A DNA stretch of 20,054 bases from a virus (lineage: Duplodnaviria; Heunggongvirae; Uroviricota; Caudoviricetes). The notes under the pieces were generated by a model. That model was given only the letters and a program-made list of their open reading frames with translations, made no database searches and was not told where the DNA came from. The position numbers were made by a program, and so were the translations under genes. The DNA lies in the IMG/VR virus record IMGVR_UViG_2671180360_000015, positions 1 through 20,054 of that record; one strand, written 5' to 3'. This document shows positions 11,105 through 18,965 of this stretch, piece after piece. Each line of letters opens with the position of its first letter. The first letter of the stretch is position 1.

Positions 11105-11887
11105 TCATTTTAGAAGCCCTATTATAGCTGCAATCATACTTCCTACGCCGCCGACTGCTGCGAAAAAAGTAGCCCAAAACATTTTCTTCTGAGTACTCAA
11201 ATTCTCTCTGTACCGCACCTCATCTTTATTGAATGTAGATATTGTGTTCAGTGCCTTTCCTGTTGGCCTAAATCCACTACTTGTTTCAACAAGATCTCCA
11301 TTCTGAACAAGAGAATTCAGGCATAAACGAAGCTCTTTACGCATCCTGTTTTTATCGTCATGGTATACCCATAAACTACCAGCGACTTCGGTCATTATTG
11401 AAAACTCACTAAACACAGTTTGAGCATCCCATTCACGATACATTCTTATAATCGTTGAGAGAACAAACATCACATCAGTTATTTCTTTTTTTTGCTGTCG
11501 ATAAATATATTTTTCACGACTAAACTTTATATTTTCATAATTAGACTTTACTCTAAAGAACAACTCCCTTAAAAATGTTAAATCATTTAAAGAGTTAAAT
11601 CGCAACTCATGCGCACGGTAGTAGTAAACACCAAAAAAAGAATCAGGCGTAACCTCAGAAATATCCAAGCATGAACTTATATGAAATCTACGCTCCTCAT
11701 CATCCCATTTAAAAGCCTTTATCTTCCCATCAACCAAACAGTCAAAGAGGTATTCTGTATCATTTTTATCTTTAATATATACAGAGTACATATCATACTT
11801 AATCGCGTTTTCATATAACAAACTAATACGGCCATCATCTGGCGTTCTTTTCTTATCAAACTTCTTAAGTTGGTTTATAATTTTCAT
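11105..11887 (-). CDS. Hypothetical protein, 260 aa, soluble N-terminal domain with a single C-terminal TM anchor; candidate defence effector
   Basis: Long ORF in AT-rich DNA; C-terminal hydrophobic segment MFWATFFAAVGGVGSMIAAIIGLLK; no recognisable motif; weak SD. Confidence 0.65.
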   Translation of the reverse strand: MKIINQLKKFDKKRTPDDGRISLLYENAIKYDMYSVYIKDKNDTEYLFDCLVDGKIKAFKWDDEERRFHISSCLDISEVTPDSFFGVYYYRAHELRFNSLNDLTFLRELFFRVKSNYENIKFSREKYIYRQQKKEITDVMFVLSTIIRMYREWDAQTVFSEFSIMTEVAGSLWVYHDDKNRMRKELRLCLNSLVQNGDLVETSSGFRPTGKALNTISTFNKDEVRYRENLSTQKKMFWATFFAAVGGVGSMIAAIIGLLK

Positions 11888-11996: not shown

Positions 11997-12770
11997 TCAA
12001 TTATCTATGATTGATATCACCTTACCAGTTTTTATATCAACACGCGCAGCAATCGTCTGTTTCACCACTCCGCCATAAGCATTAGTTCCGCGAAACGTGG
12101 TTTTCACAATGGCATGCGGGTCTTTATTCAAAACCAGATGATATACCGTTGATACATGTTTATAAGATGAATCATCGTTCATATTATCTTTAATTAGTTT
12201 TTCCAATGGACGATAAGAACCATCCCAACCACTAAAATTACTCTGAAATGTATCAAGATTGATTTTATTGTTTAGTGAATTCGGGTCATTTTCATAATCA
12301 TTAAAGCACCACCCAAGAACATCACCGAGTTTCAACTCATCATCTTTGGTAAATGTATATTCACTCATGCAGGCATAAAACGCATCTGACGCGGTGGCTG
12401 GAACTTCCTTAAAATCAATGTAACTATTCACAATATCGTGTCGTGTTTTCTTTGACTCGTTCCGATATTCCTTGAGTGTTTTTTCACCATATTCGAATGT
12501 TTTTTGGACTTTATGTTCTGCAACGGTTGATGTTTCAGTTTTATCAACTGGCTGGCTTTTTTCTGTTGGATAGAGTATTGAACCAATTATGCTCAATACA
12601 AAACCTCCTCCGAGATAAACCGCACTTGCACGTTTGCGGTTTGGCATTCGCACCAGTGATGGCTTGATTAACCCGATGAAGAAAGCAACGAAAAAAGCGA
12701 GTGATAGAAAAGCGATTATAGTATCCATAGCTATCCTTTTTGCATCATCCACATAAAAAATCGACCTCAT
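11997..12770 (-). CDS. Hypothetical membrane protein, 257 aa (243 aa from the start at 12728); two N-terminal TM helices and a ~180-aa C-terminal domain predicted to be periplasmic
   Basis: AT-rich ORF; TM1 TIIAFLSLAFFVAFFIGLI, basic loop RMPNRKRAS, TM2 AVYLGGGFVLSIIGSILY; the ATG at 12728 has the better SD (AAAGGAtagctATG). Confidence 0.65.
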   Translation of the reverse strand: MRSIFYVDDAKRIAMDTIIAFLSLAFFVAFFIGLIKPSLVRMPNRKRASAVYLGGGFVLSIIGSILYPTEKSQPVDKTETSTVAEHKVQKTFEYGEKTLKEYRNESKKTRHDIVNSYIDFKEVPATASDAFYACMSEYTFTKDDELKLGDVLGWCFNDYENDPNSLNNKINLDTFQSNFSGWDGSYRPLEKLIKDNMNDDSSYKHVSTVYHLVLNKDPHAIVKTTFRGTNAYGGVVKQTIAARVDIKTGKVISIIDN

Positions 12771-13157: not shown

Positions 13158-13613
13158 TTATCCAAGCCACCCGTTTTGCTTTGCACGCTCCACCTGTTCA
13201 TCTGAATAGTTCCATATCCCATCCGCAGCAACCACTGCCCCGCCAGACAGCCCCGTCTCTGGTTCATACATAACAGCAAGGCCGAGCTGATGCATAATTT
13301 CATGATTAATTCTGAATACCAGACCACGTTCACTAAGTTCTTTCCAGTTCACAATCTTATATGCGCCCGTATTAAGCAGCTCAATACTTAGCAAGACATA
13401 ATCTTCCAGCCAGTCTGACAGGTCAGTAACATCTGTTATCCGGGCTTCAACCTTTCGCCCCGTAAACACACCCTGCACCCATTCATGCAAAATCAACGTG
13501 TCCCCGCGCTCATAATTACGGTCATTTTTCCGAAACTCTGCGCGTTTTTTTCCTTCCAGTACAAGGTCGAAATATTTTGCGTGCAGCTTTACCTCGTGAA
13601 TTTTTGCCATCAT
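13158..13613 (-). CDS. ASCH-like / DUF3850-type protein with C-terminal extension (151 aa)
   Basis: MAKIHEVKLHAKYFDLVLEGKKRAEFRKNDRNYERGDTLILHEW resembles the DUF3850/ASCH signature; start ATG overlaps the gpA stop (ATGA); occupies the P2 orf91 position. Confidence 0.7.
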   Translation of the reverse strand: MMAKIHEVKLHAKYFDLVLEGKKRAEFRKNDRNYERGDTLILHEWVQGVFTGRKVEARITDVTDLSDWLEDYVLLSIELLNTGAYKIVNWKELSERGLVFRINHEIMHQLGLAVMYEPETGLSGGAVVAADGIWNYSDEQVERAKQNGWLG

Positions 13614-15937
13614 GTCCACTCCATTACTGTTGAGAATCCCGGCCACTCATCAGCGACCGGATACGTGAATTTTTTCCCGTCATAATTTACGGTCGCGCCA
13701 CGCACCAGCGCCTCAAGCTCCCATCGTTGCGGCCTGATACCGTTCTGAGCGAGGTCAACGCGGATACGGGTAATTTGCAATCGTTCTGACCGGGTCAGTC
13801 TGGCCGATGGCGCTATTTCATGCGGTTTTAACGGGTTTCCGTTTCTTTGCTGACGGTTTGGTCTTCTCAGACCGTGTTTTAATGCGCTTCTGAGCGCCCT
13901 CACGACCTCCGGGTCATTCCATTCGATAACACCGTCATCAACCAGATTAAGCACTGCTGCGGCGTGCTCAGAAGGTGTGGGAGCCGGTAACGAAGCATCA
14001 CCACCGGTGAGCTTTCCACAGTTATTGACAGGACTCCGAGGCGCGGCGATGCCGCTTTTTAAAGTCAAAGGCTCAACGACCGGAACTTTCGGAACAATGC
14101 GCCAGTCCGTCGTTCTGGTGATATGAATATGACGCGCGCCGAGATGCGGCGCGTAAATGCCGACCACTCTCTCGACTTCTTCCTCGTACTCGTTAACGTC
14201 ATCCGACGGGCTACGGGCGACCCTGACAGTCTGACAATCGCGCGGGACATTTGCCCCACCCTGCGCGCTGATATACAACGCAAAATCACCACTGTCTGCG
14301 GCGGCGCGTGCAGCCTCGACGCGCTCGTCAAACTCATCAGCAATGCTGACGCCGCGCGGCAATTTGCGTAGTTCACGGTAAGCCCCCATTGTCGGCAGGC
14401 CAACCGTTTTAAATTGCGGGATGCGCCACGTTGACGCCCATGCGGTAACAGCCGCTGCAGTGTCTTTCAGCGGCCTGCCGGTGTCGTTATCGAGCTGACC
14501 ATCCAGTGCATAGCCGTCGATGTTTTTTGAAATGTATTTCGCGATATATCCCGCAGCACCGCCCCGGTTAAGGTGTTTTGCCTGAAAACGGTTTCGCGCG
14601 GCTCCTCTTTCGTCGCCATCCTCTTTGAGCGCATAGCGACGCATGATTTCGATAATCTGGTTACGCTGGCGTGAATTACAAAAAAGCATCATATGCCAGT
14701 GCGGCGTTCCGTCGTGGTGTGGCTCGACGACACGCAAACCGTAGACCTGTAAATCATTATCCTTGAATGCCGTGCGCATCAGGCTCCAGATACGGCAGAG
14801 ATAACGCTGCGCATCCTTTGGATTAAATGCCTCATCGTTCCAGCCGTGATTAAGCTGCACGGTTTTACTTTCGCCTTTTCCTACCTGACGTGTCGGGTGA
14901 TACTTTGACGGCGCGGTCAGCGTGATAAACATCCCCACATCACCCTCTGCAGCGGCGTAACGCTCAATACCGGCAATGGTGTTCATCAGCTCCATCCGGC
15001 GAATTTCAGGATTAGAAATACTGCCCATCACCTTACTGATAAGGTCGATGCGCTCGCCGGTTTCCCTGTTTTCAAGGTCACACGATTTAAGAAATTCCAG
15101 ATTTGCCTGGCGGCGCGCACGCACATCACGAATGGCGTGTTTACTGGCATAAGGAGAACGGTCTTTATTGACCTCCCCGACAGCTATCAGTAACGCTTCA
15201 TGCCAGCGCATACGCTGGCCTTTAAGCTGACTAATCCACCACTCATCGTTAAACAGGCGGGCAATGGCAGAATATGCCTGCCTCGTGGTCATCTGTCCTT
15301 TACGGTATTTTTTCCAGTAGAGCGGGGAAATATTGAAAGCACGTGCAGCGCCAGCAACATGACCATACAGATGTGCCTGCGCCTCATCCGTAAACAGCGA
15401 TTCTTTTTCACCATGCGCATCAACCCATGCATCGCAGAGTTCCTCATACATCATGAAAAGCTGCGATGAGATACGGGCGGCAAACTTTTTCAGCTCCTTG
15501 TCATTCATTCCAGGCAGGCGCGCATAGTGGTCACGCTCTGCCAGAAACAGCAACGACGCGTCGGTGTTCATTTCATGGCGCTGATTCACGCGCTCAATGC
15601 GCGGCCATAAACGACGCTGAAAAGTGGATGTGAGGAAATAAAACCCGTGTACCGGACTTTTATTGCGCCGGATGTAGTCATAGCGTGAAGTAAACAGCGA
15701 GCGCAAAAAGTAAGGCAGGCGGTTAATCGTGGATAAAACACCTTGCACCTGACGCATCTCGTCACGTGTAAGGGGTCTTTCGCGCCCGACAGCCTCGCGT
15801 GGCGCGTTCCATGCATAAGCACCAGTAAACGCCTTACCGGTGCCTGCGGCAAATGCTGACGGAGGGACAAAACGCCCGGAGGCTTTAACGGCCATATGAG
15901 CCAAAAGCCTCAGAACAACGCTTGCTGAGTTGCTCAA
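13610..15937 (-). CDS. A: Replication initiation endonuclease gpA (rolling-circle initiator)
   Basis: HUH motif in EPHHDGTPHWHMMLF; start at MAVKASG (15895) would give 761 aa, the recalled P2 gpA length; longest ORF is 775 aa. Confidence 0.9.
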   Translation of the reverse strand: MSNSASVVLRLLAHMAVKASGRFVPPSAFAAGTGKAFTGAYAWNAPREAVGRERPLTRDEMRQVQGVLSTINRLPYFLRSLFTSRYDYIRRNKSPVHGFYFLTSTFQRRLWPRIERVNQRHEMNTDASLLFLAERDHYARLPGMNDKELKKFAARISSQLFMMYEELCDAWVDAHGEKESLFTDEAQAHLYGHVAGAARAFNISPLYWKKYRKGQMTTRQAYSAIARLFNDEWWISQLKGQRMRWHEALLIAVGEVNKDRSPYASKHAIRDVRARRQANLEFLKSCDLENRETGERIDLISKVMGSISNPEIRRMELMNTIAGIERYAAAEGDVGMFITLTAPSKYHPTRQVGKGESKTVQLNHGWNDEAFNPKDAQRYLCRIWSLMRTAFKDNDLQVYGLRVVEPHHDGTPHWHMMLFCNSRQRNQIIEIMRRYALKEDGDERGAARNRFQAKHLNRGGAAGYIAKYISKNIDGYALDGQLDNDTGRPLKDTAAAVTAWASTWRIPQFKTVGLPTMGAYRELRKLPRGVSIADEFDERVEAARAAADSGDFALYISAQGGANVPRDCQTVRVARSPSDDVNEYEEEVERVVGIYAPHLGARHIHITRTTDWRIVPKVPVVEPLTLKSGIAAPRSPVNNCGKLTGGDASLPAPTPSEHAAAVLNLVDDGVIEWNDPEVVRALRSALKHGLRRPNRQQRNGNPLKPHEIAPSARLTRSERLQITRIRVDLAQNGIRPQRWELEALVRGATVNYDGKKFTYPVADEWPGFSTVMEWT

Positions 15938-16160
15938 CCTGCGCGTTTAAATCAGCAAAAGACTTTGCGCTTCCGGTCAGAATATCGTGATGCATCAGGC
16001 CGGAAACGAGCTGGCTTAATTTCGGGTAATAACCAACCACCGCCAGCCACTCCTGACCGGCGTTTTTACCGCTTTCCGCTCTCTTTTTCTCGTGGAGAAT
16101 AAACTGGAAGCTGTCACTGGTAACCACATAACGTTCGCCAATTTCAATACGAATGCTCAT
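15885..16160 (-). CDS. Hypothetical early protein (91 aa)
   Basis: ORF in early operon; ATGA overlap with the upstream TraR-like gene; lies in the P2 orf80-83 region. Confidence 0.6.
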   Translation of the reverse strand: MSIRIEIGERYVVTSDSFQFILHEKKRAESGKNAGQEWLAVVGYYPKLSQLVSGLMHHDILTGSAKSFADLNAQVEQLSKRCSEAFGSYGR

Positions 16161-16381
16161 GCCATTCTCCGGTAATGTTTGTTTTTTGCTTCAAAGACTG
16201 ACTGACAGGAAACACAACGCGTGGCTGACGGATAAGCCGCACGACGGGCAGCAGGTATTAGCGCATCACACTCTTCGCAAACCAACGCAGAAACACCGCA
16301 ATGTTTTACCCTTGCCGCGTTAATCTGGCGCTCCAGTAATTCAGCCTGTTGTTCCTGAATAAAATCTACGTTGTCCGGCAT
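16157..16381 (-). CDS. TraR/DksA-family C4 zinc-finger protein (74 aa)
   Basis: Cys pairs CEECDALIPAARR ... RCVSCQ typical of TraR/DksA C4 zinc fingers; strong SD AAGGAG. Confidence 0.8.
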   Translation of the reverse strand: MPDNVDFIQEQQAELLERQINAARVKHCGVSALVCEECDALIPAARRAAYPSATRCVSCQSVFEAKNKHYRRMA

Positions 16382-16383
16382 TA

Positions 16384-16671
16384 TCAGCTCCTTTTATCGT
16401 TCAGTTTCTTAAATTCATCAGCGCAATAGCTGGCGATTTCTGTCATTAATTTCGTCAGTTCATCCACGGATGAAATTTGCTTATGAAATACAGCGCGTTT
16501 AACAAGTAAATTGACCACATCAGACAGGAGATTTAATTTATCCGCATAAATGGCTATAGTTGATTCCACCATATCCCCAGTGTTTTTATCGCGTTTAATA
16601 TCAGCTAGCGACAAATCACCATTTTTCATGACTGAAATCTTCAGCCAGTTATTAAGCAATATATTTTTCAT
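16384..16671 (-). CDS. Hypothetical protein (95 aa), AT-rich
   Basis: ORF with ATGA overlap to the upstream gene; roughly 40% GC against about 55% backbone. Confidence 0.55.
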   Translation of the reverse strand: MKNILLNNWLKISVMKNGDLSLADIKRDKNTGDMVESTIAIYADKLNLLSDVVNLLVKRAVFHKQISSVDELTKLMTEIASYCADEFKKLNDKRS

Positions 16672-16913
16672 TCGCTATATGCCCTCTCCGCAGAATCAAT
16701 CATTTCCCGGCCATTATCGGTAATACAGAAACCTTCTCTTGATTTGGTCACAAGCCCCCATTTCCCCATTGCTATAAATGCTTTTTCCACACGACTAGGA
16801 CAGGAGCGGAAGACATCGCTTGAAGGATGTAGTGGAGTCTTGTCATCTAATTTTTTAAGTAATGAAAGTTGATAATCTGTTAAGCGTTTCCTGAACCATT
16901 TTGTATTTGTCAT
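16668..16913 (-). CDS. Hypothetical protein (81 aa from the ATG at 16913), AT-rich
   Basis: ORF in early operon; the track's longer form begins with TTG at 16919. Confidence 0.55.
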   Translation of the reverse strand: MTNTKWFRKRLTDYQLSLLKKLDDKTPLHPSSDVFRSCPSRVEKAFIAMGKWGLVTKSREGFCITDNGREMIDSAERAYSE

Positions 16914-17044
16914 CTCCAACTTCCCTGTTATTTATTGAGTCCTAGATTATGGAATTTGGCAGACTCCTGACTGAGCAACTCGACTATCTCCAGGCAAAAA
17001 GAAGCCCCGCACGATTAAGTGCGTTAAAAACTTTGGTTAATTAC

Positions 17045-17545
17045 TTAATGCAGATATTGCTCTGGTTTTACCGACGTCAGAATTGTCGGTGCATATTCAA
17101 ACAGACTGAATAATTCACGTAATGCACGGAATAAAGCATCACGCCAGTAACATGACTCTTCATTAATTCGCCAGTATGGCTGGTTGAATTCTTTTTCAGT
17201 CAATCCGGCATGCATAAATAAAGTGCGACGCTGACTGACAGTTAAAAAACTAATATATGCATACTCACTTGCGCCAACCTGACGGCGTTTTGAGAATGCC
17301 CCACGCAATTCATCAATTGCACAAACCAGCCGTTCACGTTCGACGTCGTTCATTTCTTCAAAACGCATCGTTGCGTGACGCTGCTTTAACTGCGCATGAA
17401 AGCAAACCGTTAGCCGTTCGCGCTCCATCATCTGATTATAATAATCACATGTATCCTGCCAGCGAGGGACGGCAAGATGCTTGCCAATTATCCGGCGCAT
17501 AGCTGCTGGCTGTTTTTCAACGAGATTGAGCGTCATCACTGTCAT
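17045..17545 (-). CDS. B: Replication protein gpB
   Basis: 166 aa, matching recalled P2 gpB length; position upstream of A in early operon; ATGA overlap with upstream ORF. Confidence 0.75.
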   Translation of the reverse strand: MTVMTLNLVEKQPAAMRRIIGKHLAVPRWQDTCDYYNQMMERERLTVCFHAQLKQRHATMRFEEMNDVERERLVCAIDELRGAFSKRRQVGASEYAYISFLTVSQRRTLFMHAGLTEKEFNQPYWRINEESCYWRDALFRALRELFSLFEYAPTILTSVKPEQYLH

Positions 17546-17712: not shown

Positions 17713-17829
17713 AACTCCTCCTGAAACAGAGCCGGTTTTTAGCCATGTCCGGCGCATGGTCTTGTGGTACTATCCAATTGCTTTCACTCCAAATGTAAGC
17801 AAGTAGTTCGTAACACAAGGAATAACGAC

Positions 17830-18006
17830 ATGAATGATTTAGAAAAAACCAAGTTTCTTTTTGAGCAGACCTGTTCAGTCATCGGTGGAGCACTTACTGA
17901 ACAATCAAGAATGCCTCTCCCTGTAGAGGTACGCATCGAGCGGTTGTTTGATGCTGTTTACCCAGTTCTTGAACGAAAGCTCGAAGAAAAACTTGGGAAA
18001 AAATAA
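17830..18006 (+). CDS. Hypothetical small protein (58 aa) convergent to the early operon
   Basis: Start MNDLEKTKF preceded by AAGGAA; possible extended -10 (TGgTACTAT) at 17763..17771; fills a 294-nt stretch with no minus-strand ORF. Confidence 0.4.
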   Translation: MNDLEKTKFLFEQTCSVIGGALTEQSRMPLPVEVRIERLFDAVYPVLERKLEEKLGKK

Positions 18007-18195
18007 TTATTTCTCGTGCTGGTAAAGAAAATCTAAAATTCCCGCGATACAGCTAATTTCTCTGCCGGACAATTGCTTACCTAAACGTCCGGCTTCTTGT
18101 TTCAGAAAGTCACCAGCCCTCACCGACAAATCCAGCATTTCTTGTGGCGTTAATGCCTCGTTATCTGCTGCAATAACACTCTGTTGTTTTCCCAT
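18007..18195 (-). CDS. Hypothetical early protein (62 aa)
   Basis: Start MGKQQ preceded by strong SD AAGGAGGtaatt; immediately downstream of the Cox-like gene. Confidence 0.55.
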   Translation of the reverse strand: MGKQQSVIAADNEALTPQEMLDLSVRAGDFLKQEAGRLGKQLSGREISCIAGILDFLYQHEK

Positions 18196-18205
18196 AATTA
18201 CCTCC

Positions 18206-18562
18206 TTAGGCCGCGTGGCCATGTCTGGATTTGCTGTAACTTATGCGATTCTTCCAGTCATGCCATTCTGTCGGAGCTTCATCGACTAGTTGAGCTGCAT
18301 ATTTGTCCCACTCACGACGATTAATCCATAACTCAGCATGACCGCCCGGCTTTAACGGGTCTGTCATATAGAATGCTGGCAGCTTTCCAGCTCGTGCCAT
18401 TTCAGCCACCGCACGAGGAGTCTTACCGATGTAAAGAGCAAAACCCTCTTTCGACAGTAAATCTGACGGATCCGCAGCCAACTTAATGGAATCACGCTTG
18501 TTTTTTTTAAGAGCAGAAACTTCTTGTCTTTTCTCGTCACAAATTTCAGATCCGACATTCAT
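18206..18562 (-). CDS. cox: Cox-like excisionase / early regulator (118 aa)
   Basis: First gene of the leftward early operon, divergent from C; segment ALYIGKTPRAVAEMARAGKLPAFYMTDP resembles the recalled P2 Cox HTH region; SD GAGGA. Confidence 0.65.
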   Translation of the reverse strand: MNVGSEICDEKRQEVSALKKNKRDSIKLAADPSDLLSKEGFALYIGKTPRAVAEMARAGKLPAFYMTDPLKPGGHAELWINRREWDKYAAQLVDEAPTEWHDWKNRISYSKSRHGHAA

Positions 18563-18665
18563 TTTGCTATCCTCACATTGATGTCAGCGATCTAGAGCGA
18601 TTTAGAGTCGTTAGATGCTGATAAATCATATCAACTATGCAAAAGAATACGAGGTTAGAGAATTT
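18563..18665. promoter_or_regulatory. Immunity switch region (Pe/Pc and operators) between cox-like and C
   Basis: 103-bp region between divergent regulators; three tandem 10-bp imperfect direct repeats at 18586..18615. Confidence 0.55.
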
Positions 18666-18965
18666 ATGTCAACTGACACTAGCGAACGTTTGAAGCTTAT
18701 CCGTGAGTCTGAACGTCTGAAAATGAAGGAGGTAGCTGAACTAGCTGGCATCAACTACACCACATATGCAGGTTATGAATCAGGTAAGGCTATGATGTCC
18801 CTAGAAAATGCTAAGAAGTTTTTTAAAGTAGAAAGGTTCAGAAAATACCGTGACTGGTTCATGTTTGATGAAACTGATCCAGCAGCTGGACAAATAGCCC
18901 CGGCTCTCGCACACATTGGGCAAGACTCAACAATCTTGCACCACTCAGACCAAAAGACTGGCTGA
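18666..18965 (+). CDS. C: P2 C-type immunity repressor
   Basis: Start MSTDTSERLK gives 99 aa as in P2 C; C-terminus GQIAPALAHIGQ...QKTG matches recalled P2 C; HTH-like N-terminal region. Confidence 0.8.
   Translation: MSTDTSERLKLIRESERLKMKEVAELAGINYTTYAGYESGKAMMSLENAKKFFKVERFRKYRDWFMFDETDPAAGQIAPALAHIGQDSTILHHSDQKTG

Follow-up and report, generated by a model that had tools for sequence, protein, structure and literature searches.

Does the small zinc-finger gene in the early operon of this P2-like phage encode a regulator that acts on host RNA polymerase (RNAP)? The window, which is the whole 20,054-nucleotide stretch of DNA that was analyzed, is a segment of a P2-like (Peduovirus) genome. 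An earlier note, made from the letters alone, had proposed a TraR/DksA-type zinc-finger protein at 16157-16381 with a C4 motif ending in RCVSCQ. The open reading frame (ORF) was recovered at exactly these coordinates, and its strand, which the note had left unstated, is minus. It starts with ATG at 16381..16379, stops with TGA at 16159..16157, and encodes 74 amino acids (MPDNVDFIQEQQAELLERQINAARVKHCGVSALVCEECDALIPAARRAAYPSATRCVSCQSVFEAKNKHYRRMA). On the basis of the ORF list, matches to PF01258 and TIGR02419, and identity to P2, we assigned it as a TraR-family C4 zinc-finger gene, the ortholog of P2 orf82, and use that name here. The motif was found in the translation as CxxC-x17-CxxC, with C35, C38, C56, and C59 all present (C35-E-E-C38-D-A-L-I-P-A-A-R-R ... 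R-C56-V-S-C59-Q).

Family membership was analyzed by HMM search, the check that the note had suggested. Orf82 scored 40.9 bits against Pfam PF01258 (zf-dskA_traR; cut-off 24.9) and 75.1 bits against NCBIfam TIGR02419 (cut-off 59.7, E=5e-21), so that both curated cut-offs were passed. The title of TIGR02419 is 'phage/conjugal plasmid C-4 type zinc finger protein, TraR family', and the match spanned residues 3-64 of Orf82 and model positions 1-64 of 64. PHROG 54 ('DksA-like zinc-finger protein') was matched at E=1e-31. Because of the TIGR02419 and PHROG 54 E values, orf82 was considered a genuine gene and not a chance frame. The more specific equivalog models were all missed: the F-plasmid TraR model NF010268 (40.2 vs 108 bits), the YbiI model NF008243 (45.2 vs 96 bits), and the DksA models TIGR02420 (16.6 vs 115.5 bits) and NF033459 (25.3 vs 105 bits). 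These scores are far under the cut-offs, indicating that Orf82 is a member of the TraR subfamily but an ortholog of none of these three proteins.

Structural comparison pointed to the same subfamily. A PDB sequence search with Orf82 returned the TraR chains in RNAP complexes as top matches, 5w1s_M (E=7.9e-9) and 6n57_M, followed by YbiI and, weakly, DksA. The AlphaFold2 model (pLDDT 78.5) places a zinc-ribbon globule between an N-terminal helix (residues 3-24) and a C-terminal one (residues 57-73). When this model was searched against the PDB with Foldseek, the best match was TraR 6n57_M (E=2.9e-4, TM 0.50) and then 5w1s_M, with YbiI and DksA behind them. Superposed on TraR, the model fits loosely, with a TM of about 0.5 and an rmsd of about 14 A, since the helix orientations in the free Orf82 model differ from those in RNAP-bound TraR. 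Both the size of Orf82 and its elements fit the norm of the TraR subfamily (about 70-75 aa; N-terminal helix, zinc globule, C-terminal helix).

Conserved residues were surveyed in an alignment of 108 diverse TraR-family representatives from an exhaustive HMMER search. The four cysteines of the C4 motif are near-invariant (108, 108, 108, and 107 of 108). The zinc-ribbon globular region from C35 to C59 (16205..16279, minus strand, read from the sequence) includes R46 and R47, which correspond to R48 and R49 of TraR and are kept in 107/108 and 94/108 representatives, respectively. In TraR, R48/R49 make rim-helix and Si3 contacts (PMC9239242). P43, the equivalent of TraR P45, is intact in Orf82 and conserved in 94/108, and a C-terminal K-H-Y is common to Orf82 and F TraR. 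Alignment to F TraR and P2 Orf82 located the N-terminal DxxDxA-type motif, D-N-V-D-F-I, at codons 3-8 (16358..16375, minus strand). D3 and D6 are present and align with D3/D6 of TraR, and Ile stands at position 8 in place of Ala8. Among the 108 representatives, D3 was found in 95 and D6 in 99, while position 8 was occupied by Ala in 74, Val in 18, and Ile in 3. The D3/D6-type aspartates are required for function in TraR and lambda Orf73 (PMC9239242). Ala8 is typical rather than obligatory, because P2 Orf82, which also has Ile8, is active.

Two long proteins among the HMMER matches, P0100 (1369 aa) and P0117 (538 aa), were matched by Orf82 in 8 and 5 separate stretches, respectively. The best stretches covered residues 18-41 (P0100) and 14-49 (P0117) of the Orf82 query. 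They are unlike the small single-domain homologs and may be repeat proteins or composition artefacts.

The closest characterized protein is P2 Orf82 (AAD03304.1), an ortholog with 96% amino acid identity over all 74 residues. The two proteins share the DxxDxI variant, the C4 spacing, and the RR pair. In both phages, orf81 and orf83 flank the gene, which belongs to the Pe early operon and precedes A. The upstream neighborhoods differ: an 83-aa ORF of phrog_11056 replaces orf80 (DUF2732) in the window, and the type of the cox/C immunity region is not that of P2. The window protein departs from P2 Orf82 by three substitutions (A30V, P41L, and T73M). V30 and M73 are frequent in other orf82 alleles, and L41 is the sole distinctive change. 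At the nucleotide level there are six differences (16164, 16232, 16260, 16265, 16285, and 16293), three of which fall at second codon positions and cause the three substitutions. All six are A in the window vs G in P2 on the plus strand, that is, T vs C on the coding strand. A deamination-type mutational bias was rejected, as the window-P2 alignment over 4 kb (two P2 HSPs) showed a balanced spectrum (A>G 30, G>A 28) with no window-wide signature; we put the pattern down to coincidence within a local haplotype.

Gopalkrishnan et al. (mBio 2022, PMC9239242) examined five TraR homologs, among them P2 Orf82. The purified protein displaces DksA from E. coli RNAP about as well as TraR does, with half-maximal displacement at 0.65-1 µM. 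It inhibits rrnB P1 without ppGpp, with an IC50 of about 250 nM vs about 50 nM for TraR. P2 Orf82 lacks Ala8 of the DxxDxA motif, which according to the authors may explain this lower activity, the IC50 being 5-fold higher than that of TraR. It activates thrABC and argI 2- to 4-fold, and when induced it complements a delta-dksA strain. The same paper reports expression of P2 orf82 from Pe (PMC9239242). As Liu et al. 1993 are cited there, overexpression of Orf82 stopped cell growth.

RNAP binding and an effect on host promoters, which the earlier note had proposed for this gene, have thus been seen with a 96%-identical protein that occupies the DksA site, turns rrnB P1 down and amino acid promoters up, and complements the dksA null. 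The hypothesis and its tests had already been carried through, with positive outcome, on what is essentially the same protein; therefore, the feature is already known. RNAP binding, promoter effects, and dksA complementation come from the literature on the P2 protein, and the ORF, its family membership, motifs, fold class, and synteny were observed here. We infer that this allele has the same activity, makes the predicted contacts with RNAP, and is of benefit to the phage.

The 1.8 kb around orf82 is 96-98% identical to P2 and to many P2-like phages of E. coli and Yersinia. On the minus strand, the order is cox, a stretch absent from P2, an orf78-like gene, B, a hairpin, an 83-aa ORF, orf81, orf82, orf83, and A. 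This order is syntenic with the annotated P2 Pe operon, which bears out the placement of the gene in an early operon. The first early gene is cox-like (118 aa; 18206..18562, minus strand; PF10743 Phage_Cox). A candidate Pe-like sigma-70 promoter, TTGACA-17-TATTCT (18644..18672, minus strand), faces the operon from the divergent repressor/cox region; it is a consensus match only, with a layout as at P2 Pe. At the right end of the window, an HTH repressor gene and an integrase gene are divergent from the early operon.

Replication genes flank the cluster. Gene B (166 aa; 17045..17545, minus strand) was assigned by phrog_235 (E=8e-105) and synteny with P2 gpB. A terminator-like hairpin with a T-tract (17008..17023, minus strand) lies between B and the downstream ORFs, collinear with what the P2 annotation calls a 'putative rho-independent terminator' (B/orf80). 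The 83-aa ORF (16668..16919, minus strand; phrog_11056, without a Pfam match) sits at the position of P2 orf80. Translation likely starts at its third codon, an ATG; in E. coli XJ34, the annotation gives the homologous CDS a length of 81 aa. Gene A (13610..15895, minus strand) encodes the rolling-circle replication endonuclease (PF05840, E=4e-123). Its start was set at the ATG at 15895 on the model of P2, in which A and orf83 share 11 nt.

The immediate neighbors of orf82 are orf81 (95 aa, DUF5405; 16384..16671, minus strand) and orf83 (91 aa, DUF5405; 15885..16160, minus strand). The TGA of orf81 stands 2 nt before the ATG of orf82 and is followed by an in-frame TAA, and the ATG of orf83 overlaps the TGA of orf82 as ATGA. 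This spacing and overlap suggest that translation of orf82 may be coupled with that of both orf81 and orf83. A Shine-Dalgarno (SD) sequence, AAGGAG (16388..16393, minus strand), was found in the sequence 6 nt before the ATG of orf82, within the 3' end of orf81. Pairing with the anti-SD has an energy of -7.9 kcal/mol; the values for other genes of the operon are -10.0 (B), -10.3 (orf78), -7.0 (orf81), and -6.6 (orf83) kcal/mol. The SD of orf82 is good yet unexceptional, mid-range within its operon. The earlier note had called it strong and read high expression from it. The SD is there, but high expression is unsupported: nothing except the presence of the SD backs it. The gene also lies downstream of the terminator-like hairpin.

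Pfam DUF5405 is passed by both orf81 (E=1e-26) and orf83 (E=2e-13), and PHROGs name both 'replication initiation protein'. Recent duplication was rejected, as BLASTP gives no alignment between the two proteins. Because they share DUF5405 yet do not align by BLASTP, they are taken to be very old paralogs that bracket the TraR gene.

orf82 is widespread in E. coli. At >=95% nucleotide identity, that is, at least 95%, it was found in 1603 of 5426 complete E. coli genomes (~30%), where RefSeq names it 'TraR/DksA family transcriptional regulator'. With that name too, 791 public contigs carry the exact Orf82 sequence. In distant Peduoviridae, a TraR-family gene is also located in the early operon upstream of A, adjacent to it in ENT90 and three genes away in 186. 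Phage 186 Orf80 is 50% identical to Orf82 and is annotated 'not essential'. In Erwinia phage ENT90, the order is DUF2732-TraR-A, and DUF5405 neighbors are absent. The finding is ordinary for a P2-like prophage and already known. Its discovery value is small, given that the P2 orf82 family assignment is in every current annotation and that the activity of the P2 counterpart was published in 2022. The value is confirmatory, in that a TraR/DksA zinc finger and its operon context are recognizable from raw sequence.

Phages 186 and ENT90 have a DUF2732 gene right in front of their TraR gene, and in the XJ34 prophage it occurs together with a homolog of the 83-aa ORF. This neighbor is otherwise conserved in 186, ENT90, and XJ34, and has therefore been lost from this window.

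Orf82 was compared with the other known systems of the family. F-plasmid TraR (5W1S, 6N57; NF010268) is the best PDB match by both sequence and fold; it belongs to TIGR02419, is likewise 73-74 aa long, and is built from the three elements seen in Orf82. Orf82 retains D3, D6, the four cysteines, the equivalents of R48/R49 and P45, and the C-terminal KHY. However, identity is 38%, and TraR A8, E46, K50, and P43 are replaced by I, A, A, and L, respectively. TraR is a gene of the tra operon, whereas Orf82 belongs to a phage early operon. Lambda Orf73 is, like Orf82, an early phage TraR homolog; it occupies the DksA site on RNAP and needs no ppGpp to inhibit rRNA and ribosomal-protein promoters. 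It differs in having the full DxxDxA motif and a TraR-like IC50 of about 50 nM, and it gives little activation of thrABC/argI, compared with 2- to 4-fold for P2 Orf82 (PMC9239242). Lambda Orf73 is the only one for which burst size and host growth were shown to be affected. E. coli DksA (TIGR02420; 1TJL) shares the PF01258 zinc finger, the acidic tip residues toward the RNAP active site, and the secondary-channel site. Orf82 is about half its size (74 vs about 150 aa), has a single N-terminal helix instead of a coiled coil, and acts without ppGpp.

Taken together, Orf82 is very probably the ortholog of P2 Orf82 in a P2-like temperate phage or prophage of E. coli, an RNAP-targeting TraR-type regulator made from a Pe-type early operon. 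In the proposed mechanism, the early Pe-type promoter would transcribe orf82 when the repressor is absent, within the cox-B-orf81-orf82-orf83-A operon, and translation of orf82 would be coupled to both neighbors. By homology to TraR, the N-terminal helix with D3 and D6 would insert into the RNAP secondary channel toward the active site. The zinc globule, through R46 and R47, is predicted to dock on Si3 and the rim helices of beta-prime, with beta Si1 as the likely contact of the C-terminal helix. Open-complex kinetics would be altered without ppGpp, turning rRNA and ribosomal-protein promoters down and amino acid biosynthesis promoters up. Host resources could in this way be diverted to phage production during lytic growth.

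The distinctive Leu41 bears on how active this allele might be. Codon 41 (16259..16261, minus strand) is CTA (Leu), whereas P2 and most close relatives have CCA (Pro), owing to the SNP at 16260. Orf82 Leu41 aligns with TraR P43. Pro was present at position 41 in every other close Orf82 allele sampled. Allele-specific 31-mer searches found the Leu41 allele in 18 complete E. coli genomes vs 126 for the same 31-mer with the Pro codon; the 18 compare with about 1600 complete E. coli genomes that carry orf82. Alanine substitution of TraR P43 or P45 weakens RNAP binding, and the defect of P43A is rescued at high concentration (Chen et al. 2019, eLife, PMC6970531).

This allele could thus be an attenuated (hypomorphic) TraR homolog, in which P41L weakens RNAP docking and the host is little affected at natural expression. 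The binding defect of P43A at the aligned position and the rarity of Leu among carriers and close alleles speak for it, and they had prompted P41L to be taken up as a significant lesion. The family alignment led us to downgrade it. Column 41 is variable (P 39, E 14, D 10, A 9, V 7, and L 7 of 108), so that Leu occurs naturally in 7 representatives. The strongly conserved proline is the neighboring P43 (94/108), which is unaltered here. In addition, the identical protein on 791 contigs indicates a stable lineage allele rather than a one-off lesion. Because the column varies family-wide and Leu is found in 7/108, a functional defect from Leu41 is unlikely on sequence grounds, and we regard attenuation of the allele as improbable.

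A second alternative is that the main role of Orf82 is directed at the phage itself, tuning phage promoters or aiding replication, possibly in a complex with a small neighbor. The model for such a complex is TraR_VP882 (Vibrio phage VP882 gp61), a phage TraR homolog that is also in a repressor-controlled early operon and whose start also overlaps the stop of the upstream gene. Its RNAP binding via DxxDxA is needed for host growth arrest. With the product of the adjacent gene, QisA (gp60, 199 aa), it forms a synergistic growth-arresting complex that is countered by QtiQ (bioRxiv 10.64898/2026.07.27.740977, July 2026 preprint). The position of orf82 among the replication genes B and A, its apparent coupling to the DUF5405 genes orf81 and orf83, and the DUF2732 gene that adjoins the TraR gene on its upstream side in 186 and ENT90 are in line with such a role. 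However, no QisA homolog flanks orf82 in the window. When VP882 gp60 was compared with Orf81 and Orf83 as QisA-like partner candidates, E was 4 or more, no detectable similarity, and gp60 is without a Pfam family. The DUF5405 neighbors are missing from ENT90, and the DUF2732 gene is missing from the window. Moreover, P2 Orf82 alone is active in vitro and in vivo (PMC9239242). The partner model is unsupported here, because QisA is unrelated to Orf81/Orf83 and the neighbors are not conserved across the family, and we see little chance that the main role is phage-directed. It is just as doubtful that Orf82 acts with the co-translated Orf81/Orf83 (elsewhere with the DUF2732 protein) to sharpen or redirect its effect on RNAP, in which case P41L could be a tuned-down allele tolerated in lysogens.

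That Orf82 is instead an Ogr/Delta-type late-gene activator or another DNA-binding zinc finger, and not a secondary-channel factor, has almost no probability: P2-family phages do encode a C4 zinc-finger activator, Ogr, and Orf82 is small and Cys-rich, but the Pfam scan, with no Ogr_Delta match at E<=0.01 and only TraR/DksA-type models above cut-off, effectively refutes an Ogr-type zinc finger, the annotated P2 genome has ogr as a gene of its own between int and D, and the TraR-specific N-terminal D3/D6 helix is present in Orf82.

Several other parts of the window differ from P2. Just downstream of A, at the place of P2 orf91, a 162-aa ORF with DUF3850/ASCH and DUF7415 domains was found (13158..13646, minus strand). 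Two cargo ORFs of about 260 aa, 11105..11887 (phrog_7611) and 11997..12770 (phrog_3403), both on the minus strand, lie between the late genes and A, where P2 has tin and old. They gave no Pfam match and no PADLOC match. The tin/old position is known as an anti-phage defence hotspot in P2-like phages, and the two ORFs could be an uncharacterised defence or exclusion module.

Within the early operon, about 0.5 kb (17714..18222) is without a P2 counterpart. It contains an 80-aa ORF of phrog_14615 on the plus strand (17764..18006), antisense to the operon, and a 71-aa ORF of phrog_12968 on the minus strand (18007..18222). This stretch resembles a small moron that has entered between cox and orf78. 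In the adjoining immunity region (18206..18965), the Cox-family protein is 118 aa long vs 91 aa for P2 Cox. For the HTH repressor region, blastn gave no match to P2, and nucleotide identity to phage 899 is only about 66%. These differences point to a different immunity type on an otherwise P2-like backbone.
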